From positions 52,038-116,037 of IMG/VR virus record IMGVR_UViG_3300006127_001273: a DNA stretch of 64,000 nucleotides. The stretch is one strand, 5' to 3'. Positions within the stretch are counted from its first letter, which is position 1; every line of letters starts with the position of its first letter. This document shows positions 6,980 to 52,244 of this stretch, piece after piece. A model generated the notes under the pieces. The model searched no databases. It was not told the DNA's origin and was given only the letters and a program-made list of their open reading frames with translations. Both the position numbers and the translations under genes were made by a program. The stretch is from a virus. Taxonomy: Duplodnaviria > Caudoviricetes.

Positions 6980-8633
6980 AGATTTAACAGCAACACAGAA
7001 CGATTATGCAGTATTCTTACCTGCAACATCTGGATTCTATGCTACCTTTATCGGAAAACAACGGTATAGCAATTATGTCGACCCTGCAAGACTTCCCACA
7101 TCATTCACTAATGGTGTAGAAAGTCTCAACTACCTAGAGCCAGAAAAGGGATTATTTTACTATAACTGGTGCTTATATTCTGCAGGCCATGCTAACTTAG
7201 ATATTAGTAAGCAAGACGAAGCAGAAGATATGTTTCGAAATAGAGATAGAACTACTAGTTGGGTTCTCGGTGATTCGGGCGGATTTCAGATCGGCAAAGG
7301 CGTATGGGAAGGAGATTGGAAAAATCCTAATTGTCCAAAAGCACAAAAGAAGAGAGAACAGGTTCTAGCATGGATGGACGCATACATGGATTATGGTATG
7401 TGTTTAGATATTCCGGCATGGGTATGTCGTAGTCCCGAAGGGCAAAAAGCAACTGGTATCCGAACATATGAAGAAGCAGTAGATGCAACGTACATTAACA
7501 ATGAATACTTCGTTAATAATCGAAACGGTAATTGTAAGTTTCTAAATGTTCTTCAGGGAGAAAATCACGCGCAAGCTGATGATTGGTATAATCGAATGAA
7601 GAAGTATTGCGATCCAAATATCTACGGTGATAAGGCATTTAACGGGTGGGCGATGGGCGGACAAAACATGTGCGATGTTCACTTAATTCTAAAAAGATTA
7701 GTCACACTACGATTCGACGGATTATTAGAACAAGGTAAACAAGATTGGATGCACTTCTTAGGAACTAGCAAATTAGAATGGGCAGTATTATTAACTGATA
7801 TTCAACGTGCTGTTCGTAAATATCACAATCCTAACTTTACTATTAGTTTTGACTGTGCAAGCCCATTCCTAGCAACTGCAAATGGACAGATTTATATTCA
7901 AACTGAAACTAAAGATAGAGAAAAGTGGGTTTATAGAATGGTTCCAAGTGCAGATAATAAAAAGTATTCATCCGACACACGATTGTTTAAAGATGCTGTT
8001 GTACAAGATAAACTTTTTAAAAAGAAATCAAATAGCAATGAATTCTATGGGTTTGAATCTAGTCCTCTAATTGACCAGGTCGAAATGAAGGACGTCTGTA
8101 TTTACAGTGCAGGAGTTCCTAATCCTACCTTACCAAAAAATGTAACACCGGATCCATACAATCCCGATCATTGGGAAGTATTACCTAGTTACAATAAATT
8201 AGGAAAAGTAAGCGAACGGACAAGTTGGGATAGTTTCAGTTATGCTATTCAAATGGGTCATAACGTGTGGCATCATATCAATGCTGTGCAAGAAGCAAAT
8301 CGTCAATATGACATCGATGTTAGACCATCAATGCTTATTCGAGACGGTCTTGTAAAAACAGAATACTTTAGAAATCTAGTCGACGAAATTTTTCAAATAG
8401 ACGATTTCGATAAAGCAATGGCACTTGTTGAAGAAAATGAAAAGTATTGGGATACTATTATCGGAACTAGAGGTAACACTGGAAAACGTCTTATGAATTC
8501 TTCAACGAATTTTCATAATTTGTTTGAAGAAGTTCCGCAAGAAGAATCCGACGATGACTTTGAAACAGATCCTGATAACTTTTCAGAAGAGAAACTTGAT
8601 AAATTAGAAGAAGAACTTAGAAATGAAACGTAA
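6972..8633 (+). CDS. dpdA: DpdA/TGT-like 7-deazaguanine transglycosylase (probably DNA-directed)
   Basis: TGT-fold motifs LGDSGGFQIG, LDIP, LNVLQG, GWAMGG, HFLG, ISFDCASP; clustered with folE and queE. Confidence 0.8.
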   Translation: MNKDLTATQNDYAVFLPATSGFYATFIGKQRYSNYVDPARLPTSFTNGVESLNYLEPEKGLFYYNWCLYSAGHANLDISKQDEAEDMFRNRDRTTSWVLGDSGGFQIGKGVWEGDWKNPNCPKAQKKREQVLAWMDAYMDYGMCLDIPAWVCRSPEGQKATGIRTYEEAVDATYINNEYFVNNRNGNCKFLNVLQGENHAQADDWYNRMKKYCDPNIYGDKAFNGWAMGGQNMCDVHLILKRLVTLRFDGLLEQGKQDWMHFLGTSKLEWAVLLTDIQRAVRKYHNPNFTISFDCASPFLATANGQIYIQTETKDREKWVYRMVPSADNKKYSSDTRLFKDAVVQDKLFKKKSNSNEFYGFESSPLIDQVEMKDVCIYSAGVPNPTLPKNVTPDPYNPDHWEVLPSYNKLGKVSERTSWDSFSYAIQMGHNVWHHINAVQEANRQYDIDVRPSMLIRDGLVKTEYFRNLVDEIFQIDDFDKAMALVEENEKYWDTIIGTRGNTGKRLMNSSTNFHNLFEEVPQEESDDDFETDPDNFSEEKLDKLEEELRNET

Positions 8634-9147
8634 TTATTCAACCGGAACTACAGATAATGTTACATTTTTTACCGGAGTTGAAATTGAAAAGACTCCTGCT
8701 TACGGAAAGCAAACGCTTTTCGTAGTGGGACTACATCCGGTAAACACAATTGAAGAAGTATTAGCCGAAACTACATATGATACAAGGCATATCTTTTTTG
8801 GCGCTAATCATAGTTTTAATCCGCGAATTTCCGAAGATTGGGATCAATGGGAAAAAATGATAACTCACTTTTTAGAGAAAGGTTACTTGTGTTCATTAGA
8901 CATCCCGTTATCACATGCTGAAGAGTTTAATGAAGGGGGATTGTGCAGTTACGGCACTTTTATTCCGCAAATTAGAATACCATTGCCTTACATGCAACTT
9001 TGGAATTATAATACTATGATCAAACTCGATGATAAAGGATTTAATGCAACTAATCCTGGTGTTTGGAGTCATAGTTTACATGAGCTGAAGGATCGTGAGA
9101 ATTTTACTTCATGGTATGATTATAAAAATGACAGAATTATTAAATAA
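8623..9147 (+). CDS. Hypothetical protein coupled to dpdA
   Basis: 174 aa overlapping the dpdA stop; enzyme-like motifs FFTGVEIE.TPAYG, HIFFGANHSF, IKLDD..F.ATNPGVW. Confidence 0.7.
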   Translation: MKRNYSTGTTDNVTFFTGVEIEKTPAYGKQTLFVVGLHPVNTIEEVLAETTYDTRHIFFGANHSFNPRISEDWDQWEKMITHFLEKGYLCSLDIPLSHAEEFNEGGLCSYGTFIPQIRIPLPYMQLWNYNTMIKLDDKGFNATNPGVWSHSLHELKDRENFTSWYDYKNDRIIK

Positions 9148-9163
9148 GATTCGTTCTTATCTA

Positions 9164-9192
9164 TTGACATATTATAATGTATTTGTTACAAT
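9164..9192 (+). promoter_or_regulatory. Sigma70-type promoter
   Basis: TTGACA-N17-TACAAT upstream of the QueD-like gene. Confidence 0.75.
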
Positions 9193-9221: not shown

Positions 9222-9599
9222 ATGAGTCAACAAGAAACTAATATGATTTGGGTAACGTTTAGAAAGGAGGGCATCCATGCATACCCTGCTGCACTAACCG
9301 AACCTGCACTCGAGGATGTTAAATTTTTAGGACATCCTCATAGACATATGTTTCATTTTAAAGTTTGGATTCAAGTATATCACGATGACAGAGATATCGA
9401 ATTCATTCTATTTAAACGCGAGCTCGAAGGGTTATATAACAACTCTGTACTTGAGCTTAACAACAAATCTTGCGAAATGATTGCTCGTGATTTATACGAA
9501 GAAATCCATCGCAGATATCCAGGCCGCGAGGTTTGTATCGATGTAAGTGAAGATGGCGAAAACGGCTGCTTCATTAAATTTCCTTTCACTATATTTTAA
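9222..9599 (+). CDS. QueD/PTPS-fold paralog, DpdL-type (putative 7-carboxy-7-deazaguanine decarboxylase)
   Basis: T-fold motifs EGIH, LGHPHRHMF (LxxxHRHxF instead of QueD CxxxHGH), RDIEF, SCEMIA, VSEDGENG. Confidence 0.7.
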   Translation: MSQQETNMIWVTFRKEGIHAYPAALTEPALEDVKFLGHPHRHMFHFKVWIQVYHDDRDIEFILFKRELEGLYNNSVLELNNKSCEMIARDLYEEIHRRYPGREVCIDVSEDGENGCFIKFPFTIF

Positions 9600-9613: not shown

Positions 9614-9886
9614 ATGGCTAACAACGAGAGATATTCAAACAAGCAATCTAAGCAAACTTATTTTGAACGTCGACCCGATATTGTTAAGATCTTTGATGAT
9701 CTTGAAGCATACCTTAATTTTTGCCGCATTGAACTGTTGCCATACAATCCGGCAGACTTGTATAATAAACACGCAAAAACTTGGCAGATTTACGAGCGCG
9801 AAGTAAAGGGTCATAAGCGTCCATGGAATAACGACCGCCGTAATCAAAAGCAAGGTGCAAGAGTTAATAAGCCAAGGTCACACTGA
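9614..9886 (+). CDS. Hypothetical protein
   Basis: 90 aa, basic C-terminus, TGATG coupling to the glycosyltransferase gene. Confidence 0.65.
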   Translation: MANNERYSNKQSKQTYFERRPDIVKIFDDLEAYLNFCRIELLPYNPADLYNKHAKTWQIYEREVKGHKRPWNNDRRNQKQGARVNKPRSH

Positions 9887-10971
9887 TGACTATCTTTCTA
9901 GTTGACTTAGAGGCGGTTTCGACACGATACACAGAACAATGGAAGGCCTATGTACCGCTTCTGCTACAAGAACAAGGACATAAAGTACATGTTATTTCAG
10001 GCCCTACTGATATCCCAAATGATACTACTCCTGGTGCTTTTCTCAATTTTGCTGGCACCAATATCTATAAGGCTGCACAAGTTGAGGCTATGGCTAGATT
10101 GTTCTCCGAAGGCAAGGTGGTTGCTGGCGATCATTTTATTTTCACAGATGCTTGGCATCCTGGCGTTATCAACTTAAAGTACATGAGTGAATTGTTACAA
10201 ATTCCTGTAACAATTCACGCACTGTGGCATGCTGGTAGTTATGATCCGCAAGACTTTTTAGGTAGACTCATTGGTGATGAACCGTGGGTACGTCACGCTG
10301 AACAAAGTTTCTTCCACGCGATCGATCATAATTACTTTGCTACAGATTTTCATATAGACATGTTCTTTGAGAACTTATTAGGTGTTAATTTCAATCCCGG
10401 ATTTAATGTTGCAAATAAAGTAGTACGCACTGGCTGGCCGATGGAATATATGGAATCTACATTAGATCCGTTTAAGAATATGGCTAAACGAGATTTAATT
10501 TTATTTCCGCATCGAATTGCTCCAGAAAAGCAAGTAGAGATTTTTAAAGACCTCGAAAAAAGTTTGCCGCAATACGAGTTTGTTGTTTGCCAAGAAAATA
10601 AATTAACAAAAGATCAATACCACACATTGCTAGGTGAATCAAAAATGGTCTTTAGTGCTAATTTACAAGAAACCCTCGGCATTAGCATGTATGAAGGTGC
10701 GATTGTAAATTCAATTCCATTAGTGCCGGATAGATTAAGTTATTCCGAAATGTACATCGACGAATTTAAGTATCCTAGCGAATGGACGCTATCGTGGGAT
10801 CATTATATTGCCAACAAAGATAAAGTTTGTCAGCATATTACAGATCTTATGACAGATTATGATTCTATCACTAGTAAGATAGAACAACAAAAAGAGGTCC
10901 TGCGAGATAAGTTTTTCTCAGCAGGTGTATTAATCGAGCATATTAAATGGCCACAACAGCTACTACAATAA
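9886..10971 (+). CDS. GT-B (GT4-like) glycosyltransferase, GTDC1/DUF3524-like
   Basis: EX7E motif ETLGISMYE; FPHRIAPEK; PLVPDRLSYSEMY. Confidence 0.8.
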   Translation: MTIFLVDLEAVSTRYTEQWKAYVPLLLQEQGHKVHVISGPTDIPNDTTPGAFLNFAGTNIYKAAQVEAMARLFSEGKVVAGDHFIFTDAWHPGVINLKYMSELLQIPVTIHALWHAGSYDPQDFLGRLIGDEPWVRHAEQSFFHAIDHNYFATDFHIDMFFENLLGVNFNPGFNVANKVVRTGWPMEYMESTLDPFKNMAKRDLILFPHRIAPEKQVEIFKDLEKSLPQYEFVVCQENKLTKDQYHTLLGESKMVFSANLQETLGISMYEGAIVNSIPLVPDRLSYSEMYIDEFKYPSEWTLSWDHYIANKDKVCQHITDLMTDYDSITSKIEQQKEVLRDKFFSAGVLIEHIKWPQQLLQ

Positions 10972-11363
10972 ATTTACCGCATCCGTATACAATTACAAAT
11001 GGTACATCAGGGGCAACATTAACATCTAATCTTGGAGTAAATGGTGCTAGTGTTAGTTGGACTACTCCTAACACTAATTTTATTAATGGTACAGGTAAAA
11101 CAGTAATGACAATTCCTCACGGTGGAGACGAAATTATTGTAGAGCCGAATGCAGCATTAGTTGTAAAAGGGTCAGTTAAAATAAACGGAGTAGATTTGGA
11201 AGAAAGATTAGAAAGAATTGAAACACTCTTACATATTCCAACCCGTGATACAGCAATGGAAAATGAATTTCCTAAGTTAAAGAAACTGTGGGAAGAATAT
11301 AATCAAGAATTAGAAAAATATAAAACTTGGAAAAGGCTAAACAATGGACAAGAGAAGAATTAA
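10947..11363 (+). CDS. Hypothetical protein
   Basis: 138 aa; Thr-rich N-terminus, coiled-coil C-terminus (LEERLERIE); overlaps both neighbours. Confidence 0.65.
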   Translation: MATTATTINLPHPYTITNGTSGATLTSNLGVNGASVSWTTPNTNFINGTGKTVMTIPHGGDEIIVEPNAALVVKGSVKINGVDLEERLERIETLLHIPTRDTAMENEFPKLKKLWEEYNQELEKYKTWKRLNNGQEKN

Positions 11364-11871
11364 GCATAAAGAATTTAAGAAACTAGTACAAGACATCTGC
11401 AATCAAATCGAAAAGAGCAATTGGAAGCCTGACTATATTGTAGGTATTACACGAGGTGGATTAATGCCTGCGTTGTATATTAGTCATTATCTCAAGGTTC
11501 CTATGAATACTTTAAAGATTAATCTTAGAGACCATACAGAAAACGATTGTGAAACTAATTGCTGGATGGCCGACGATGCATATGGATATAATGGAGATAT
11601 TGATCAGCAAGTTTGCAAAAATATTCTAGTAGTAGACGACATTAATGATACCGGTGCAACACTTAATTGGTTAATGGCTGATTGGCAGTCTAGTTGTTTG
11701 CCCAACGACGCACGATGGGATCATGTGTGGAATCAAAATGTAAAATTTGCAGTACTAGTCGATAATTTATCGAGTGATTGCAAAGTAAAAATGGACTTTT
11801 GCGGAATGGAAATTAACAAAGCCGAACAGGACGTTTGGATTGATTTTCCATATGAATCATGGTGGAAATAA
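11344..11871 (+). CDS. Type I phosphoribosyltransferase (xanthine/guanine PRT-like)
   Basis: IVGITRGGLMPA, PRPP-binding loop ILVVDDINDTGAT, C-terminal WIDFPYE. Confidence 0.85.
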   Translation: MDKRRIKHKEFKKLVQDICNQIEKSNWKPDYIVGITRGGLMPALYISHYLKVPMNTLKINLRDHTENDCETNCWMADDAYGYNGDIDQQVCKNILVVDDINDTGATLNWLMADWQSSCLPNDARWDHVWNQNVKFAVLVDNLSSDCKVKMDFCGMEINKAEQDVWIDFPYESWWK

Positions 11872-12104: not shown

Positions 12105-12794
12105 ATGGATAAAGAAAATAAGTTAATTAGCAATATAATTCGCCAACGTATTGTATTAGACAACAAGAGATTTCACTGCAATGATAACATTGCAGATTAC
12201 ATCAAAGAAGGCGAACTAGATTTGTTAGTAGATGAGGTTGCGGATAAATTCGAAGATGTCCTCGATTCATTAGTGATTGACATCGACCACGATCACAATA
12301 CACACGATACTGCAAGACGTGTTGCTAAAATGATGGTGCTTGAAACATTTAGTGGCAGATATCGTCCAGTTCCAAAAGTAACTGCATTTCCTAATATGGG
12401 ATATAAGAGCTTGTATACTACTGGTCCAATTTCAATTCGGTCAACTTGCGCACATCACTTCCAGAATATTGTAGGCAAGTGTTGGGTAGGTATTGTACCA
12501 GACGAAGAAGTAATTGGATTGAGTAAATTTAACAGACTTGTTCATCATATTTGCGAACGTCCTCAAATTCAAGAAGAAATGACTACACAAATTGCACAAG
12601 CATTACAGGAGTATGCAAAAACTCCGCATATTGCTGTTGTAGTAAAAGCAGAGCATCACTGCATGACAATGCGAGGAGTTAAGGAACACGAAAGTGATAT
12701 GACAACTGCAATTATGATGGGTGCATTTGAATCCGATGCTGCATTAAAGAAAGAATTTTATGATATTTGCTTGTCAATGAAAGGGCACAAATAA
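12105..12794 (+). CDS. folE: GTP cyclohydrolase I
   Basis: DTARRVAKM, STCAHH, IGLSKFNR, RPQIQE, HHCMTMRGV motifs; GGAG RBS. Confidence 0.95.
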   Translation: MDKENKLISNIIRQRIVLDNKRFHCNDNIADYIKEGELDLLVDEVADKFEDVLDSLVIDIDHDHNTHDTARRVAKMMVLETFSGRYRPVPKVTAFPNMGYKSLYTTGPISIRSTCAHHFQNIVGKCWVGIVPDEEVIGLSKFNRLVHHICERPQIQEEMTTQIAQALQEYAKTPHIAVVVKAEHHCMTMRGVKEHESDMTTAIMMGAFESDAALKKEFYDICLSMKGHK

Positions 12795-13867
12795 TGAAGA
12801 TTTCTAAAATTCCAGGATTAGGTCGATTTGGAATTTTTATCGACGATCTCGATTTTAACCATTTATCGGATGAAGAATGGTTATACATTGGAGATTTACA
12901 TCTCAACAATCTTGTAACTATTATCCGTAACTGCAATCTAAAATGGCAAGATCAGATAGAATGGTGTACAAAATGGGGTGATACTCGATACGGTATAAGA
13001 TACTTAATTCTTAAAAAATATACTGGGTTAACTTGGTCAGAATGTGTTCAAGCAGCACTTAACGACGATCCCAAAATAGATGCAATCGATCGGATTAGAT
13101 TAAAAGCAATTGCTAATATGCAAGAGTTAGATCATGATACCGGAAAACACATTATGCGGATCACTGGAAAAAAAGATAAGGATGGGAATCCGTTAGGAAT
13201 GTTTTCCGAAGGAGAACTCTTATGGCATTCAAATGAGAGTGGAACATTAACATTTACACCAGGAGTAGCATTATTAGCATCTGAGAACGTTATCGGATCG
13301 TCAACCGGATTTCTTACTACAACCGATTATTATGAATCTGTTAGTGAAAGTTTTCGTTCTGAACTCGACGAAATGATTCTTATACATCGTTTTACTCCCG
13401 GAAAAATTAATCCGGGATTAAGAGCCGATCAAGATGAAGTCATGCATGGAAATATGTGTCCAGTAGACGATGTCGAAATTCCAATGGTCATTCAAAGTCC
13501 TGGCGGGATTAACGGATTACATTATTCCATTAATACTGTTTGGTCAATCAAAGGCATGAGTAAAGAAGATTCTGACAAAGTATTTGCAGAGATAGACAAA
13601 AATTTATTTGTTGAAAAATACATATACGATCATTGGTATCAATCTGATAATGATTTTTTGCTGTTTGATAATAGTATTACATTACACCGAAGATTAGGTG
13701 ATATTAAGAATAGATTATGTTACCGTGTACAACATGATTATAGTAATCTGCAAAAATCAGCATGGCAACCTTATTATCAACCAGAAATTGCTAAAAGATA
13801 TAAAGACGAAATTGCTTATTATATCGATTTAGCGGATATTAAAAATTTTAAACTGCCGGATGAATAA
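12794..13867 (+). CDS. TauD/TfdA-family 2OG-Fe(II) dioxygenase-like protein
   Basis: TAATG coupling with folE (ORF track starts 12767); LLWHSNE, GSSTGF, HWYQ..NDFLLFDNSITLHRR. Confidence 0.7.
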   Translation: MKISKIPGLGRFGIFIDDLDFNHLSDEEWLYIGDLHLNNLVTIIRNCNLKWQDQIEWCTKWGDTRYGIRYLILKKYTGLTWSECVQAALNDDPKIDAIDRIRLKAIANMQELDHDTGKHIMRITGKKDKDGNPLGMFSEGELLWHSNESGTLTFTPGVALLASENVIGSSTGFLTTTDYYESVSESFRSELDEMILIHRFTPGKINPGLRADQDEVMHGNMCPVDDVEIPMVIQSPGGINGLHYSINTVWSIKGMSKEDSDKVFAEIDKNLFVEKYIYDHWYQSDNDFLLFDNSITLHRRLGDIKNRLCYRVQHDYSNLQKSAWQPYYQPEIAKRYKDEIAYYIDLADIKNFKLPDE

Positions 13868-14450
13868 ACTGTATTTTGGATTATTACCGTCGGGTACAAT
13901 TTCAGATGCATTTATAATAGGAGTTGCAGGGTTTGATAATACATTCGTCAAACCTTGTATTCCAGAATTAACATCTAACGGAACATTAGTGTATAGGAGC
14001 CACGAGGATTATGTAATAGATTTTAGTTATCCGTTCAATCCATTAATGTTTCGTTCAATCGATTGGGCAACAAAGATTGATCAATTAACAACATTTTTAG
14101 ATAATACAAATAAAAATATTTGGATCGGATCCACTCGCCCAGAGCAATTAGACATCATTAAATCATCATTGGGCGAACGATCGGTAACTGTTTCAATTAA
14201 CTATGACGAATCATTATATCAAACAGTTCTTAAAAACTATCAATCTTTCATTACCGAACAACCAATGAATTTAGATACATCCTTATTGCCAAGATCAAAA
14301 AGTCACAAGGCTGATTACACTTTGGACTTACGCGATCTATATAACCAATCTAAATTTATCAATCACTTATTGAATATCAACATCAACATCAACGATGAAA
14401 AAATGCAATACTACAATTCATGGTTGACTTTACAACAAAATAGTATATAA
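13860..14450 (+). CDS. Hypothetical protein
   Basis: 196 aa ORF overlapping the dioxygenase stop. Confidence 0.65.
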   Translation: MNKLYFGLLPSGTISDAFIIGVAGFDNTFVKPCIPELTSNGTLVYRSHEDYVIDFSYPFNPLMFRSIDWATKIDQLTTFLDNTNKNIWIGSTRPEQLDIIKSSLGERSVTVSINYDESLYQTVLKNYQSFITEQPMNLDTSLLPRSKSHKADYTLDLRDLYNQSKFINHLLNINININDEKMQYYNSWLTLQQNSI

Positions 14451-14456: not shown

Positions 14457-15314
14457 ATGAATAAAATTAAAGTCTCAGAGATATTTTATAGTTTACAAGG
14501 AGAAGGACGCTTTATGGGTGTGCCTTCTGTTTTCATGAGAACATACGGTTGTAACTTTCAATGCCAAGGATTTGGGATGCCGAAGGGAGAACTAAGTCAA
14601 GAAGTCGAACCAATTGCGTATGATCATACAAATTATGCACCGTATACGTCATACGAAAATCTACCGCTAGTATCTACTGGATGCGATAGTTATGCAAGTT
14701 GGCATCCTGCATTTAAAAATCTTAGTCCGTTTGTAGAAGTAACCGAACTTGTTGAAAAGATGCTAAATCTTCTTCCATATAAAAAATGGGAAGATGAACA
14801 TCTTGTAATTACAGGCGGCGAACCGTTGTTAGGATGGCAACGGGCATATCCTAGTTTATTGTCGCATAGTAAAATGCACGGACTTAAAGATGTAACATTC
14901 GAAACAAATGGTACTCAACCGCTTAGTGAAGAATTTAAAATATTTTTACGCACTTGGAGATTGAGAGACTATACTAAAGAAATTACATTTAGTGTTAGCG
15001 CAAAGTTAAGTTGTTCGGGCGAACCTAGAGAAAAAGCAATCCGCCCGGAAGTAGTGTGTGATTATGAAACTGTCGGATTTACATATCTTAAGTTCGTAGT
15101 TGCTACAGAAGAAGATGTTGAAGAAGCAATCGAAACTGCGGACATTTATCGTGCAGAAGGTTTTACAGGACCTGTATATTTAATGCCAGTAGGCGGTGTT
15201 AATGAAGTCTACAATTTAAATGCAAAACGTGTAGCGGAACTTGCATTACAAAACGGATTACGATATAGTGACCGTTTACATTTACCGCTATTTGGAAATA
15301 GCTGGGGAACATAA
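14457..15314 (+). CDS. queE: 7-carboxy-7-deazaguanine synthase (radical SAM)
   Basis: EIFYSLQGEG, GVPSVFMR, GCNFQC...GCDS, VITGGEP, FETNGT, YLMP, RLHLPLFG. Confidence 0.92.
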   Translation: MNKIKVSEIFYSLQGEGRFMGVPSVFMRTYGCNFQCQGFGMPKGELSQEVEPIAYDHTNYAPYTSYENLPLVSTGCDSYASWHPAFKNLSPFVEVTELVEKMLNLLPYKKWEDEHLVITGGEPLLGWQRAYPSLLSHSKMHGLKDVTFETNGTQPLSEEFKIFLRTWRLRDYTKEITFSVSAKLSCSGEPREKAIRPEVVCDYETVGFTYLKFVVATEEDVEEAIETADIYRAEGFTGPVYLMPVGGVNEVYNLNAKRVAELALQNGLRYSDRLHLPLFGNSWGT

Positions 15315-49500: not shown

Positions 49501-52244
49501 TAAGATTTAATTCTATAGTCAATTACCGAAATCTCAGTTTTGATACTTGGGCCAAATGGAACCATATCACTAAAATAATAAGGATCAGTGTTTGGTCGGT
49601 CTTTGGTCATCTTTTGTAGAATTAAATCAACCATAGTAGTCGGATTTGTATCTACCCCTAATGATTCAGAAGTTTTTATAAAGTTTCTCTTGAATTTACT
49701 ATATTCAATTTTTGAATGTTCGATCGCACGAACAATATTATTCTGTTCCGATGTAATATGATAAATTGAAAGGCTCAAAGGTGCGCTATGCTGGAGGAAC
49801 TTAGTACCATATAACGTAATGTTTCCTAAATCTCGTAAATTATTTGTACCCGGTGATGTACCAACAAACGATATAGTGTTAGGTAAATTATCGACAATCG
49901 AATTTACATGATCAATCACTTCTCCTAACGAAAAATTGGTTATCAACTCATTAAAAGGATTATTTTGTAAATTATACGGAATTTCATAAAACCCGTTGCT
50001 ATTGATTGCTTGTTTAGAAAACGCTCGCATAGTCAATACATCACTAAGAGCAATATCATTAACTAGTGTAATTTGTTTGTATAAAGGATTTCTAATTGCA
50101 GTTGTATCAGTTGTAAAATTCCAATTAACGGAATCAAGACGAATACCGTTAACATAAATTACTAATTTTAAATCATCTAACCCATTAATATTATCAAAAA
50201 TATCCAGAGGGAAATTGTTAATCCACCCAGAATTTTTATAGATTCTAATTGCTGCTTGTGTTGTTGTATTAGCAGAAGTTTGCCAGCCATTAACATAACT
50301 CAATACATTATTGTTGTTTGTTTTAACAAGATAACCAACATTGATATTTTTTGTAATAATCTTTGAGGTGTCTTTGTAACTAAACGAATCAGTTGCTAAA
50401 TCAAAATTAAATAATATATCGCCAATGTTGTTTATATTACCGTAAGACAGAGGAAATCCTAATACAGTATCATCTGATCCTGTTCCTACCTTATATGAAA
50501 ATAACTTAGTTCCAATAAAGGTCGAACCTGCATAGGTAGATTTATTACCATAACTAACATTATTGTCATCAACAATATCGAATAACGGAGTTTGATTTAA
50601 CTGGTTTTTTTGTTGTGCTATATTCCATGATACTCCGTCGTACCAGTACATATATCCTTGAGCACTTTTACCTGATCGAATTAAAACAACATCATTTAGA
50701 TTAGGTGTTGCATATTCTACTAAATTAATCAATCTAACGTTACTAGTTGAATTATGGACTGTAACAAAGTTAACTTGATATATTTTGTTTACAACCTGCA
50801 TATCAGTATCTGCGGTAACTAAAATCAGTTGGCCGTCGATTAGGTCTATACCATCAATGTTATATCCAAGTTGTCCTTCGATATTTGAAAAAATATCCGT
50901 TGTAAATGAATCAACTAAATCAACATCTGTAATTGCATTAGTTCCAAAATTAAACAACTTTAATCCGGTCTCAAATTCGATAATCGGACGAGTCGCTCTT
51001 GCCGTTTGATCCAACGATGCTACAGTTCCGTTTAGTTCTGCACTTTTCTTAATTACGTCAATATGAAACCATCTATTATTACGACTCCATGGATTATGAT
51101 CATTGCTGCTACGATCAATAACAATATAATCAGGAGTTTGAGGATATGATGATGCATTACTAAATGGTAGCGAATCAAACGGAGTATCATCAAATAACAC
51201 CGATTCAGTAACAGTATATGGGCCGATAATTTCTAATGTAGATTCATTTATTAATCGAATACCTGTGCCTACACCTTCAACATAAAAATGTCCAGTAGCA
51301 TACTCATTCGGAGTTACTGTACCGATAAAGGATACCTTCATTCCATTACTTAAAGATGTACCGTTTTCTAAAGTAAAAGTCTTCTTTCCTATAATTTCTT
51401 TTTCAACATCAATAAACGTATTTTCGTTGATCGAATATATCTCAAAAATACCGCCTACATCCGCATTACTTTCACTTACATAATATAAAGTTTTTGGTGC
51501 ATTATCCGGTACTGTAAAAGTTATTGTGCCGTTTTCTACTGCATAACCGTCGACTCCGACATCGGTATACCTATCTAAAAATCCAACAGTTCTTGCAGTT
51601 TTAATAGAAAACGGGTTACCTGGACTACTAATATCAAAAATGTATGTTTGACCTTTATATAACTTGATCGTCGGATTCGGCGTTAATCCAAGCACTCCGT
51701 TTGGTGAAAATATATAAACGTTATCGCCTAAATCATTTTGTATCGATACATCATAAGTGCTTATAATCTTTTGTTGTTGCCCAGAAATCTGAATAGACGA
51801 TGGGCCATATGGTAACCAATAATAGTGTTGAAAATTTACAAATTTATCCCAATTAATATGCGGATCCCAACTATAAAACTCTTCAGAATTTAATCTAGCG
51901 TGATTTGTAACATTGCTACCGAATACCCCAAGTTGGTTAATATAGTCTTGGTAATCTTTAAAAAACGTATTGTTACCCGACTCATCATTAATAACTAAGC
52001 CCGGCTCTAATTGATAATTTTGTCGTGTCAAATCAGCTGCATGAACAAATACATCATTGCCTGTGGTTGATTTAGCATATTCACGACCGATATATCCATT
52101 AATCTTTTTAACAGTCCCTGGTTGTATTAATTGATCAACTGTAGCGTGTAAGAATTTTTTATTTGCATCAGTACGATAATACTGTGGTAAAAATTCTGAA
52201 CTTATATTTGTATTATTTCCGGTTGGGTTACTGTTATCAGCCAT
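37509..52244 (-). CDS. Giant (~4900 aa) baseplate wedge/adhesin protein (gp7-like position)
   Basis: Single ORF right after the gp6-like gene; start probably MADNS at 52244 (ORF track 52256); several internal repeat classes. Confidence 0.75.
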   Translation of the reverse strand: MADNSNPTGNNTNISSEFLPQYYRTDANKKFLHATVDQLIQPGTVKKINGYIGREYAKSTTGNDVFVHAADLTRQNYQLEPGLVINDESGNNTFFKDYQDYINQLGVFGSNVTNHARLNSEEFYSWDPHINWDKFVNFQHYYWLPYGPSSIQISGQQQKIISTYDVSIQNDLGDNVYIFSPNGVLGLTPNPTIKLYKGQTYIFDISSPGNPFSIKTARTVGFLDRYTDVGVDGYAVENGTITFTVPDNAPKTLYYVSESNADVGGIFEIYSINENTFIDVEKEIIGKKTFTLENGTSLSNGMKVSFIGTVTPNEYATGHFYVEGVGTGIRLINESTLEIIGPYTVTESVLFDDTPFDSLPFSNASSYPQTPDYIVIDRSSNDHNPWSRNNRWFHIDVIKKSAELNGTVASLDQTARATRPIIEFETGLKLFNFGTNAITDVDLVDSFTTDIFSNIEGQLGYNIDGIDLIDGQLILVTADTDMQVVNKIYQVNFVTVHNSTSNVRLINLVEYATPNLNDVVLIRSGKSAQGYMYWYDGVSWNIAQQKNQLNQTPLFDIVDDNNVSYGNKSTYAGSTFIGTKLFSYKVGTGSDDTVLGFPLSYGNINNIGDILFNFDLATDSFSYKDTSKIITKNINVGYLVKTNNNNVLSYVNGWQTSANTTTQAAIRIYKNSGWINNFPLDIFDNINGLDDLKLVIYVNGIRLDSVNWNFTTDTTAIRNPLYKQITLVNDIALSDVLTMRAFSKQAINSNGFYEIPYNLQNNPFNELITNFSLGEVIDHVNSIVDNLPNTISFVGTSPGTNNLRDLGNITLYGTKFLQHSAPLSLSIYHITSEQNNIVRAIEHSKIEYSKFKRNFIKTSESLGVDTNPTTMVDLILQKMTKDRPNTDPYYFSDMVPFGPSIKTEISVIDYRIKSYPLSNVFSLDSLSTTAVLVYLNGTQLLYEHDYSFDDQGFVIISAELHNDDIITINEYDSTNGCFVPPTPSKLGIWPTYDPRAYLDTALLNPTWMIQGHDGSHTVLYGEIVNGVFTDFRDAILLELEKRIYNNIKVKYDSSIFDIYDIIPGYNRTTEYSLTEFNEILAPNFYKWVKVVGADYTQNIKFDRTISLTFNYKDFDLPNSTSCPGYWRGIYNYVLDTDSPDQTPWEMLGFNDKPTWWEQVYGSAPYTSDNLIMWQDLTDGVVRQPNVPTIKLLNFVRPDLINRIPVDSDGTLLDPLTAGWATGPVTASIADDFVFGDQGPVEGAWRRSSDYPFSFLITAMLMHPAKTFGTLLDRSRVIRNLAGQLIYSDTGLRVNPSTIAIPSIYSSATKIQTSGIINYLTDYIVGLDLTAYTQYIYDLNNINAQLSYRAGAFSSKEQFNLILDSRSPLSTGGVFVPNENYTLILNSSSPVKKITYSGVIITKLANGFEIKGYSQVDPYFTYYQWNVTGINVTVGGISETFSTWVAGNEYYAGTIVKYNENFYRVLVTNTSTPLDTAYYEKLPTLPIIGGCSARLRTGWNRTNPVVMSYGTMLRTIQDVVDFLLGYEQWLIDQGFRFDNFSDSLSVVTNWTTSAKEFMFWTTQNWSTGEDKWKQWLPNIEFVGGTIVQYEGDYYRVIRSSINSSNFNSSDFVKLEGLSTIGSSVISLSPAAASLTFITNNCVVDDITNPFYTYEIFKVDGTPIDPSTIDVYRNENTVTYSPEENDGIYNATFYLVQKEQIILLDQKTIFNDLIYSPATGYRQERIKVSAHVSTVWDGSFNIPGFIFDQAVFKNWVEWQDYQLGDVVKYQQFYYSANSFLPGTSAFTPSEWTQLSSKPSPKLIPNWTYKAGQFTDFYSLDSDNFDSNQQTMAHHLIGYQKRQYLDNIIQDDVSEFKFYQGMIRDKGTQNVFNNLFNVLTEEGKESLKFYEEWAVRVGQYGANSGFNEIEFILDEAKFNNNPQGVELLDTVPPIYQTLSYTVTDVKITNGGSGYESNEKFNLTVTTSTGTCVFNVRTDSTGKIIAINRIVNSGSFSSVGTITDTSGNLGSGAAFSLTYGIVSPSLDNLTIVQTPNDVYLKPLGYTSSPWPVLANFNPYLRSAGYARLTDVKVAIGTLDALLTNTVWDSGVQYYATNIVTYAADHTGKYKIYIAKIDNINVAPSDTSTAWSLINMGDYIWCGFDKQDWNVYRYSSAYMNVLDIVGVIVNGVQELEITTDALVTVQVGSVIALEQVDSSLAGFYKVVSVNLNAFNVVSSSTPASVTFTDQTNVVVFTLTSQRTSSIDSAEPITSLNLLPNELMWTDENGNGNGQWATWEYNKVYNQSIIINTSPHAFSQYGLSIATTNSTDFLVTTDNSGTLYVRDKASLNSSWLVRQTVPPEFISTYTDPNFTNHYIGDILAISSQEIIAADNWVAVGIPQASHVCTRYKGAWQHLSSYNIKDIIRDPISGEFYKATQNVPEDYPPTCLVTAISNNRVINQLGSGPANPGQSIIFKQTIGNLIADVVYYVSRILSDTAFTVSDTFEGNELTLTNDTNSNGVIVTLWADYWNITQYIPVDAGGTNSSLMKQGAVTLYKVNDNNIITLVDTIISPSPAENEQFGANLTFGNGTFFINAPGGNNGKGVVYQLTYQPVIYASVYYNPIGSNGTIIKVSNTAKIAVGMSIVGTGFTTGQIVARIIDSTTIQSDVEPDSQPVGILEFVILQWTWQDKVGITHNNVAIGGNFGYRMAMSKDVSTLLICSAGVSIIGAVNPGRVFVYNSDDSISYYLSQVITDTEGDGLGFGQGVDVSYAADYIVISSVLYDGLKINEGKVEIYEYGDTQYVPYQKITNIAPETSQHFGSYVSFMNDFDTLVVFSRSSVRYDPIIFDENNTTFDEKSTIFSLATKGEGRVDIYDQYGSYWIFTESLDNLDDNESQYGYSISTGDDTVILSSIYGFDLNVRSGIVYEYKKPINSFTWTIVNQEIDKVDVKKIKKAFLYNKKTDTIVTHLDVVDPLQGKILGVADEELTYKSYFDPAVYSNSDGTIPSSSGQAWTTAQVGQLWWDLRTAKFFNCYDSDVVYRNNTWNQLFPGASIDIYEWVESSILPSDWDATTDTAAGLARGISGTSLYGNSAYSIITKYDELNEVFSNTYYFWVKNKTLVPDVSNRNISANDVANLISNPRGNGYEFIAFTGVNSFSLFNVKPLLQSSDIVLSVQYWIIDKIDQNIHSQWELISTDPTTKLPELIEQKWIDSLCGTDAKNRTVPDLQLPVKIRYGVENRPRQSMVVNRFEALKQVIEQANRVLIKHQIVNQYDLSRLEAAQPIPTTVDGVYDTVIDTVEELSYINISDFVMPSIVPTIVNGRIIDIVIVDAGKGYINAPFIDIVGSGSGAILKTKINSYGQINGVEIISSGIGYDSSTILSVRTYSTLVRNDSTAKNKWSIYYYDSINTVWSKVDTQAYDTTQYWNYTDWYAPGYNQFTVVNFVVNTFIELKDLYSLVGSLVKVLTNNSGKWVLLEKYADSSSIDWTQSYSIVGLQDGTIQLSSSLYEFDNTVYGYDSSLYDLEVYDDYASTELRYIFEAFKYDIFVGDLVQEYLNLFFTSVRYILSEQLYVDWIFKTSFIKAEHNVGSLIQKVTYNNDHLADFQSYVSEVKPYRTKIREYVSNYNSVDINYQAATDFDLPTVLENGKLVPALVEVSNDTIVSYDTITETYPWKFWADNVGFSITELVIVDGGNGYITQPTVEITSNSGSGAHAIAYIAKGTVNRIVLINGGSKYLSVPTVKINGGLSSSGSPAKVIAKIGNGVVRSNLISIKFDRTTQKYFITELQELETAIGTGSKKQFTLAWAPDVRVGYSSVTVNGSNVLRDDYTLTVVKSKSSGYTRYSGLITFNTAPIKGSIIEVTYIKDWLVLNAADRIQYYYDPATGETGKDLDQLMSGVDYGGVTVNGIGFDMYYGWDGSPYFSDRWDSSDDTFTDYIVTLTSVTHTFTLPYVPASGTEINVYYAPNGTNKVNAVRLDNPGFIGHAQWDNPYAIMPPIIMDGRTSTVSVPNTFTVHIGDTFIFRQSTSDGSLAPIPDDYDTAINGGALSNIGGVYTTATGLAADDIIIDGDGFVTQTTSSATEEIVPGQVVDTVAIKVYDRPFSGSAKIKTDTFIGDGSRTEFEITQDPNNRQALLVKLISGYDNPTNQYTNVTILSKDEYTIDYQFNVRTVVLVDPPITGTIVSITSFGVSGSNILDFNSFVGDGVTDQYITTAPWLALLTISIFVNGNMLSSKNYEIFETDDTYELAKLVGINFNTPPAVGDQISYIIVSGSDQTYSIMESETIQTNGSLVYPLQNTIGDSKPYESNMLVRVGQDILKGPNNIYHTIRKATTNADLIYTISSDAALPNTADVNDVSVIISGTAVLKPNTDYIFDGSNMSIKITKTIAKKYVGAELTISIKQHPGYFYTPATTSSVASITFDVEYNNELVEIISFYKHDVLNINRTAINVTTNNSLTPNTIDYFTHLKIFNGQLQLGRTVVDDDYIWIIRNSKILTPSIDFRLNDDRSSVTLAAAPNTNDEFTLITFDDNILESGISYMQFKDMLNRYQYKRLSLNKRSKLYSDLLYNDTTILVVDASTFTLPNPSKNRPGVVEIRGERIEYFTINEHRENGILIFYVLGQLRRGTLGTGVSPVHKAGSYVQDIGSDENIPYADNTIVEQYTITNANNHNHIIPINFVPSLTVNNSWFTDYGYTLKGSFSNTVGYSVNDVVSYNGYYYVNMLSYVASTVNPTSIVPTNGQYWELYSSIPVGYQQCNDIEVFVGGYDNSLTWASNVHYTVGTIVNVGSYSYRCISEHTSSSYFRDDSTRWTFFIGNIRLRKEPYSMFNVNQAPTSPEGDIRFDADFAVDGVSKEIRLTNLLAVGTRVTVIKRTLVEWDSTTNILYDNNKIALFLKETPGIWYTGINKYESNKTTVTLDTYNASFDNAKNTFDQG

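Follow-up and report, generated by a model that had tools for sequence, protein, structure and literature searches.

A phage glycosyltransferase akin to the queuosine mannosyltransferase family in a 7-deazaguanine DNA-modification cluster

We analysed a window of 64,000 nucleotides from a virus of the Caudoviricetes (Duplodnaviria), positions 52,038 to 116,037 of the IMG/VR record IMGVR_UViG_3300006127_001273, and focused on a glycosyltransferase (GT) gene that lies in a cluster of 7-deazaguanine genes. The record spans 116 kb, with an estimated completeness of 31% and a G+C content of ~36%. Judged from sequence, the C-terminal lobe of the enzyme has a specific affinity to the queuosine mannosyltransferase family (QTMAN/GTDC1, DUF3524) that goes beyond generic GT4 resemblance, and the gene appears to be a constant component of the genes with which certain phages exchange the guanine of their DNA for 7-deazaguanine. 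From this gene linkage and ancestry, the best reading, and a plausible one, is that the enzyme glycosylates a 7-deazaguanine derivative, most likely within DNA. We put at about one in two the probability that the GT serves the DpdA3/DpdL 7-deazaguanine DNA-modification module as a dedicated accessory enzyme, adding a sugar derived from a nucleoside diphosphate (NDP)-sugar to the base.

Kinship with the queuosine mannosyltransferases

The GT gene encodes a predicted active enzyme of the retaining GT4 type. Its AlphaFold 2 model has high confidence (predicted local distance difference test, pLDDT, 94.4; predicted template modelling score 0.91) and displays the GT-B fold of two Rossmann domains. 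An alignment of 53 diverse family members (A1) shows E270 to be invariant and R210, K215 and E262 to be kept in at least 90% of sequences; these residues form the R-x4-K pair and the EX7E motif found in retaining GT4 enzymes. The block P281-L284-S285-Y286-E288 is conserved in the same members. Against solved structures the model matches GT4 and GT5 enzymes at Z scores of 20-26 over residues 1-360, with a Foldseek probability of 1.00. Sucrose-phosphate synthase (Z 26) and BshA (Z 25) lead the matches, while glycogen synthase, PimB' and LmbT reach Z 22. The glycosyltransferase of phage HY126 scores Z 19, and the T4 alpha-glucosyltransferase (1y6f) follows at Z 18.6, ranked under ~30 chains of families GT4, GT5 and GT20.

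The GT belongs to a large and mostly viral family. More than 8000 database proteins score well against it, and the best 120 of these are ~70% identical, many of them on contigs of 100-375 kb. The family forms 1148 clusters at 50% identity and occurs in at least 590 IMG/VR contigs. Single-sequence searches of Pfam, NCBIfam, PHROGs and the PDB sequences returned no significant match for the GT, and its matches in the ESM Atlas are viral clusters without names only. Pfam PF00534 (Glycos_transf_1) leaves the window GT itself unmatched and recognizes 32 of the 53 aligned members (best E 5.5e-9). A profile search of the PDB gave a single weak match, the Actinobacillus GT4 glucosyltransferase 8xsg (E 4e-5).

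A sequence-only reading of this DNA had assigned the GT to the queuosine mannosyltransferase family by comparing its C-terminal lobe with a GTDC1/DUF3524 pattern. The strings on which it relied (FPHRIAPEK, TKDQYHTLL, VFSANLQETLGISMYEG, PLVPDRLSYSEMY and EFKY) are all present in the translation. It had also called for a structural comparison with GTDC1, generic GT4 enzymes and the T4 alpha-glucosyltransferase. The solved structures listed for the GT model include only generic GT4, GT5 and GT20 enzymes and no QTMAN/GTDC1 chain, and the resemblance was therefore tested by sequence profiles, which did recover the GTDC1-family affinity.

We scanned 185,579 species genomes (GTDB) with the motif P[DN][RHK]LSYxE[MI][YFW], taken from A1. 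The scan returned 40 confirmed loci, ~17 of which encode true GT homologues and 23 encode other proteins of ~360 aa from Gammaproteobacteria, Planctomycetota, Desulfobacterales and other groups. One of the 23 is a truncated fragment and was left out; the 22 full-length proteins were aligned end to end (A2). Four of these were checked directly and match Pfam QTMAN_N (E 1e-48 to 1e-57) as well as Glycos_transf_1, and the database relatives of A2 carry PF12038 and the names 'DUF3524' or 'tRNA-queuosine alpha-mannosyltransferase domain-containing protein'. The comparison set for the QTMAN family consists of its bacterial members, and the best 120 matches of the family profile are all bacterial. 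The A2 consensus reads WNHRWExDK ... STAxHEFQGLAVLEA ... PVxPDRLSYPEIFPxxxRY.

Aligned with hhalign, A1 and A2 match over 263 columns (probability 99.7, E 2.6e-25), and the C lobes alone match at probability 99.8 and E 2e-27. The match to the GTDC1/DUF3524 pattern is real and far beyond chance, and it is confined to that lobe. The C-lobe signature HRW-x-DK, H-E-F-x-G-x3-E (EX7E) and P-[DN]-R-L-x-Y-P-E-I-F was found, its aligned blocks being invariant in the QTMAN family and invariant or nearly so in the phage family. Besides a size of ~360 aa and the GT-B architecture, the two families share HR-x4-K, EX7E and a P-D-R-L-S-Y-x-E-[IM]-[FY] block that has no counterpart in other GT4 enzymes.

The affinity singles out the QTMAN family among glycosyltransferases. 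In each of five whole bacterial genomes the A1 profile retrieves one gene, the QTMAN-family gene (E 1e-15 to 1e-20), with the runner-up at E 0.48; three of these genomes, in which Glycos_transf_1 genes were counted, contain 10, 12 and 20 of them. Single QTMAN-family sequences align with A1 at probability 98-99 (E 1e-13 to 1e-18), whereas 29 control GT4 (Glycos_transf_1) proteins from the same genomes reach a probability of at most 34 and E 4e-4 or worse. Six of 201 genomes from a single class carry QTMAN_N, and the six best matches of A1 (2e-19 to 3e-6) are exactly those genes, with three further matches near 1e-4. In the reverse direction, a hidden Markov model of the QTMAN family matches the GT at window positions 10528-10854 (E 9e-18). 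A quick maximum-likelihood tree of the C lobe joins the phage GT and QTMAN families (SH-aLRT, the Shimodaira-Hasegawa-like approximate likelihood ratio test, 89), apart from 28 of the 29 controls. Generic GT4 enzymes such as BshA, sucrose-phosphate synthase, PimA/PimB' and glycogen synthase are the best structural matches (Z 22-26 over the whole chain) and use the same catalytic motifs, but in sequence profiles they are far more distant from the GT than the QTMAN family is. The DUF3524/QTMAN proteins thus appear to be the nearest cellular relatives of its donor lobe. To our knowledge, no function is established for the bacterial members of this family, and neither tgt nor queA is adjacent to their genes in the five genomes examined.

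The kinship does not extend over the whole chain. GT-B enzymes hold the donor in the C lobe and the acceptor in the N lobe. The N-lobe domain QTMAN_N (PF12038) does not match the GT at E values up to 10, has no match in the whole virus record and, at E 0.01 or better, recognizes none of the 53 family members, while true members score 165-193 bits. Direct alignment of the two N lobes gives a probability of 9.8, E 0.003 and a score of 25 against up to 19-23 for the N halves of control GT4 proteins, which is not significant; the positions that line up in this non-significant alignment are a His after strand 4, Y-x-P and A-x-D-x3-F-x-[TS]. In the quick C-lobe tree each family occupies its own branch (SH-aLRT 95 for the phage GT), and the GT is not nested within QTMAN. 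Since there is no significant likeness in the N lobe, the defining part of the QTMAN family, the GT is best classed as a sister of that family and not as a member. The family assignment of the sequence-only reading therefore holds for the C lobe and fails as a statement of membership. The shared lobe being the donor-binding one, the resemblance argues for a shared type of donor or for shared descent, and not for a shared recognition of deazaguanine acceptors.

Gene linkage in phages and bacterial islands

The second line of evidence is the company that the GT keeps. The proximity to dpdA, folE and queE noted in the sequence-only reading is borne out by a Pfam match for FolE, sub-threshold NCBIfam matches for QueE and a neighbouring DpdA-like protein of the tRNA-guanine transglycosylase (TGT) fold. 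To follow this linkage, we sampled 30 IMG/VR loci in which the GT is flanked by 6 kb or more on either side (hereafter, relatives). The genes for the DpdA-like protein, a conserved 174-aa protein, DpdL and the GT occur together in 30 of 30 relatives.

The same association is found in cultured phages. In PA5oct-like Pseudomonas jumbo phages a GT with 42% identity lies directly behind a DpdA-like gene with 36% identity. Acidovorax phage ACP17 carries a GT with 36% identity between a DSGGLQ protein and DpdL, and in Burkholderia phage BCSR5 a GT with 24% identity adjoins a protein with DSGGFQ and CxCxxC motifs, with QueE and FolE nearby. The GT of Sinorhizobium phage Phosso (50% identity) is adjoined by DpdL, FolE and QueE, and the DpdA-like gene is located elsewhere in the genome. 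Outside of phages, the GT is found ~1-2 kb from a DpdA-like gene in small chromosomal islands of Alphaproteobacteria (Pelagibacterium, Devosia, Ochrobactrum, Azospirillum, Methylobacterium, Sulfitobacter and Roseobacter). Two of these islands were examined (L006, 3042-9035, and L012, 5545-9068), and in both a weakly matching Vut_1/YhhQ-like membrane protein lies between the DpdA-like gene and the GT; DpdL is sometimes present. YhhQ imports queuosine precursors. Island L006 adjoins a serine recombinase (resolvase), and island L012 adjoins UmuC, RecD2 and a NUMOD3 endonuclease. Both have the appearance of a mobile module for DNA modification that draws on a salvaged deazaguanine base.

The gene content of the virus record corresponds to the DpdA3/DpdL systems known from phages phiST and ACP17, with a distant TGT-like DpdA bearing DSGGFQ, DpdL, FolE, QueD and QueE, and with no QueC found. 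In the published description of DpdA3 and DpdL, LxxxHRHxF is the DpdL signature and DpdL is the proposed decarboxylase of 7-carboxy-7-deazaguanine (CDG) (Cui et al. 2023, PMC10516641). The DpdL of the window carries this signature as LGHPHRHMF and is 54% identical to the neighbour of the ACP17 gene; it is present in 30 of 30 relatives. ACP17 itself carries the GT, between its DpdA-like gene and DpdL.

Could the GT be an ordinary GT4 enzyme acting on an envelope component, a virion protein or a metabolite, placed in the cluster through a general clustering of early genes? Its best solved structural matches are indeed envelope and metabolite enzymes of families GT4 and GT5. A relative with 26% identity in Xanthomonas phage PhiXhv-12 (locus L045, 4669-7903) also lies directly after GlmS and an LmbE-type deacetylase, ~94 kb from the DpdA-like gene; this pair suggests an amino-sugar donor route in that phage. 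However, the GT is adjacent to a DpdA-like gene, or ~1-2 kb from it, in several unrelated phage lineages and in islands of only three to five genes, and its start overlaps the stop of the upstream open reading frame (ORF). Such close association in unrelated phages as well as in minimal bacterial islands disfavours an unrelated target, which we consider quite improbable.

The genes of the cluster are given in Table 1. From DpdL to the phosphoribosyltransferase, five co-directional ORFs form a tightly packed run, in which the GT overlaps both of its neighbours, with its start codon the stop of a 90-aa ORF and with its 3' end the following ORF. Replication genes (PolB, RNase H) surround the cluster.

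Table 1. Features of the deazaguanine cluster, in window coordinates; x/30 refers to the sampled IMG/VR relatives.
Feature	Coordinates	Strand	Remarks
TGT/DpdA-like transglycosylase (DpdA3-like), 553 aa	6972..8633	+	LGDSGGFQ; TGT fold
Conserved 174-aa protein, start overlapping the end of the DpdA-like gene	8623..9147	+	30/30
DpdL, QueD-like T-fold, 125 aa, proposed CDG decarboxylase	9222..9599	+	LGHPHRHMF; phrog_17812 match
Basic 90-aa ORF, stop overlapping the GT start codon	9614..9886	+	27/30; no family match
Predicted GT-B glycosyltransferase, GT4-type retaining, apparent sister to QTMAN/DUF3524 in the C lobe	9886..10971	+	ATG start; 361-aa ORF
GT C-lobe signature block R210-x4-K215, E262-x7-E270, P281-DRLSYSEMY-290	10513..10755	+	(near-)invariant in 53 family members
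138-aa accessory ORF, overlapping the GT 3' end	10947..11363	+	11/30
Phosphoribosyltransferase (type I PRTase)	11344..11871	+	Pfam Pribosyltran E 4e-13; 23/30 and PA5oct
GTP cyclohydrolase I (FolE)	12105..12794	+	Pfam E 2e-46; 26/30
TauD-family dioxygenase, phage-specific	12767..13867	+	Pfam and PHROG matches; 0/30
QueE-like radical SAM protein (7-carboxy-7-deazaguanine synthase)	14457..15314	+	NCBIfam QueE E 1e-11 to 1e-13, under cut-offs; 29/30

The DpdA-like protein has no Pfam match. Its LGDSGGFQ motif is invariant in its family (alignment A3), all 50 chains listed by Foldseek for its AlphaFold 2 model are tRNA-guanine transglycosylases, and it exceeds the TGT length by ~180 residues. The conserved 174-aa protein matches no Pfam, NCBIfam or PHROGs family, and its Atlas model is poor (pLDDT 0.36); it is 28% identical to its ACP17 neighbour and may be a missing component of the pathway. 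A canonical PTPS/QueD gene is located 45 kb upstream of the cluster (record positions 7007-7537, Pfam E 2e-28). No QueC was found in the 116-kb record, which is an estimated 31% of the genome.

Several further observations concern this cluster. A near-consensus sigma-70-like site (TTGACA, 17 nt, TACAAT, with TG) is present just upstream of DpdL at window positions 9164-9192; the promoter and terminator scan of the region gave results at chance level, the overall number of such sites included. The PRTase hints at a base-to-nucleotide route alongside the base exchange by DpdA. The TauD-like gene and a 196-aa ORF between folE and queE (window 12767-14450) are absent from all 30 relatives and look recently inserted, and the TauD-like dioxygenase was accordingly rejected as a core partner supplying an acceptor hydroxyl. 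A pterin glycosyltransferase role was considered on the basis of FolE, the PTPS-like protein and the match to a tetrahydrobiopterin glucosyltransferase (5zer, Z 20); it was rejected because 5zer does not stand out among the GT4 matches and because the GT is partnered by QueE and a TGT-like enzyme.

Proposed role and its alternatives

The proposed pathway would start with FolE, QueD and QueE making CDG, which DpdL would alter. The TGT-like DpdA would then exchange guanine in DNA for the deazaguanine base, to which the GT would transfer a sugar from an NDP-sugar. CDG or some product of DpdL may be the acceptor, or a carbon or nitrogen of the ring. Sugar addition would most likely follow insertion of the base into DNA because QTMAN acts on queuosine in tRNA and the T4 glucosyltransferases act on 5-hydroxymethylcytosine (5-hmC) in DNA. 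In both of these cases the base is already part of the nucleic acid when the sugar is added. QTMAN takes its sugar from GDP-mannose, and from the shared donor lobe we would guess at the same donor for the GT.

Known systems frame this proposal from several sides. Phage phiST contains 100% 2'-deoxy-7-deazaguanine (dDG); DpdA3 phages with fully replaced G in DNA have been described; ACP17 carries dpdL and dpdA, but the pair alone yielded no dDG in E. coli, and other enzymes were suggested to be needed (Cui et al. 2023, PMC10516641). The main text of the same paper contains no word beginning with 'glycosyl'. Plain dDG is what the DNA of phiST carries, and this phage gave no match to the GT; a further derivative may therefore be the product of the GT-bearing subset. 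The DNA of the GT-bearing phage PA5oct resists enzymes with G-containing recognition sites (PMC12191111). In the literature that we searched there was no paper on a sugar-bearing deazaguanine or purine analogue in DNA, nor on a GT linked to deazaguanine DNA; from their gene content and the ancestry of the enzyme, GT-bearing phages probably have in their DNA a deazaguanine that bears a sugar, a kind of base so far undescribed there. The T4 alpha- and beta-glucosyltransferases and other phage DNA glycosyltransferases, which glucosylate 5-hmC or arabinosylate 5-hydroxycytosine, offer a functional parallel as phage GT-B enzymes decorating a modified DNA base against restriction. They differ in that they act on hydroxyl or hydroxymethyl groups of pyrimidines, have no detected sequence relationship to the phage GT, and score under generic GT4 enzymes in the fold comparison.

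The order of events could also be reversed. The GT might glycosylate the free 7-deazaguanine base (for example, the carboxylate of CDG or a different intermediate) or its nucleotide, and the DpdA-like enzyme or a polymerase would then insert the sugar-bearing unit. The purine-type PRTase of the cluster, found in 23 of 30 relatives and in PA5oct, is consistent with such a route, as are the extra ~180 residues of the DpdA-like protein, the acidity of the GT family and the presence of small-molecule GT4 enzymes among its close fold relatives (BshA, LmbT and the tetrahydrobiopterin glucosyltransferase, Z 20-25). Yet the nearest family points the other way: QTMAN mannosylates Q34 of tRNA-Asp, that is, queuosine already within tRNA, according to a preprint (bioRxiv 10.64898/2026.06.28.735034). 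Accommodating a sugar-bearing base in a TGT-type pocket would demand a large change, and no PRTase is present in those bacterial islands that contain only the DpdA-like, transporter and GT genes. Taken together, we regard glycosylation before insertion as unlikely.

Another reading shifts the target from DNA to tRNA. The TGT-like enzyme and the GT would then be the phage or island counterpart of the pathway in eukaryotes, where TGT places the base and QTMAN adds mannose, and would retune host translation. The islands give this some appeal, since their combination of a TGT-like enzyme with a YhhQ-like precursor transporter and a GT resembling QTMAN mirrors queuine salvage followed by glycosylation. 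On the other hand, guanine is fully replaced in the DNA of DpdA3 phages, PA5oct DNA is restriction-resistant, and the cluster lies among the PolB and RNase H replication genes in a window without tRNA genes. The phages presumably lack QueA and QueG, for which no search of the record was made, and would then be unable to make the cyclopentenediol that QTMAN accepts; QueC was not found in the 116-kb record. These observations make a tRNA target highly improbable. The link to 7-deazaguanine is common to QTMAN, where it is supported by experiment, and to the phage GT, where it is supported by gene context. The two differ in that the phage enzyme has an N lobe without a QTMAN_N match and a branch of its own in the tree, and lies in DNA-modification clusters that, from their gene content, would be unable to make queuosine.

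Some observations weigh against glycosylation of a deazaguanine in DNA and are gathered here. If DpdL makes unsubstituted 7-deazaguanine, as has been proposed for phiST, this base would offer no obvious hydroxyl for a sugar, and the sole nearby hydroxylase, the TauD-like protein, occurs in none of the relatives. The N lobe, which would bind the acceptor, is unlike QTMAN_N, and the kinship is therefore silent on the acceptor directly. With a median isoelectric point of 5.6, the GT family is acidic, which is unexpected for a DNA-binding enzyme, though no exclusion. No gene for sugar-nucleotide synthesis was found in the 116-kb, 31% complete record. Finally, three DpdA3 phages with measured DNA modifications (phiST, CP220 and immuto_2-6A) have no GT match at E 1e-3; therefore no measured modification can be tied to the GT.

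A broader form of the proposal extends it to the GT-bearing DpdA3/DpdL phages as a group, among them an abundant uncultured clade of large phages, the PA5oct-like phages, ACP17, BCSR5 and Phosso. More tentatively, we suggest that these phages replace DNA guanine with a glycosylated 7-deazaguanine by means of a GT that shares ancestry with QTMAN.

Implications for phage DNA and the DUF3524 family

Phages are known to shield themselves from restriction both by deazaguanine modifications of DNA and by pyrimidines decorated with sugars. If the proposed role is correct, the modified base would mark the first case of a purine analogue in DNA that bears a sugar. The requirement for a GT could explain why dpdL and dpdA of ACP17 gave no product in E. 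coli. Since the GT is present in cultured phages (PA5oct, ACP17, BCSR5 and Phosso), the prediction is directly testable by nucleoside mass spectrometry. PA5oct-like phages are therapeutic candidates, and the chemistry of their DNA therefore matters for the host defences that they evade or set off.

The family gives a clue to what bacterial DUF3524 proteins do and to how the animal tRNA mannosyltransferase arose. Under the proposed role, activity on deazaguanines in nucleic acids would also be predicted for the bacterial DUF3524 proteins, which are uncharacterised, and the sugar decoration of deazaguanine in phage DNA, bacterial mobile islands and eukaryotic tRNA would have one evolutionary root.

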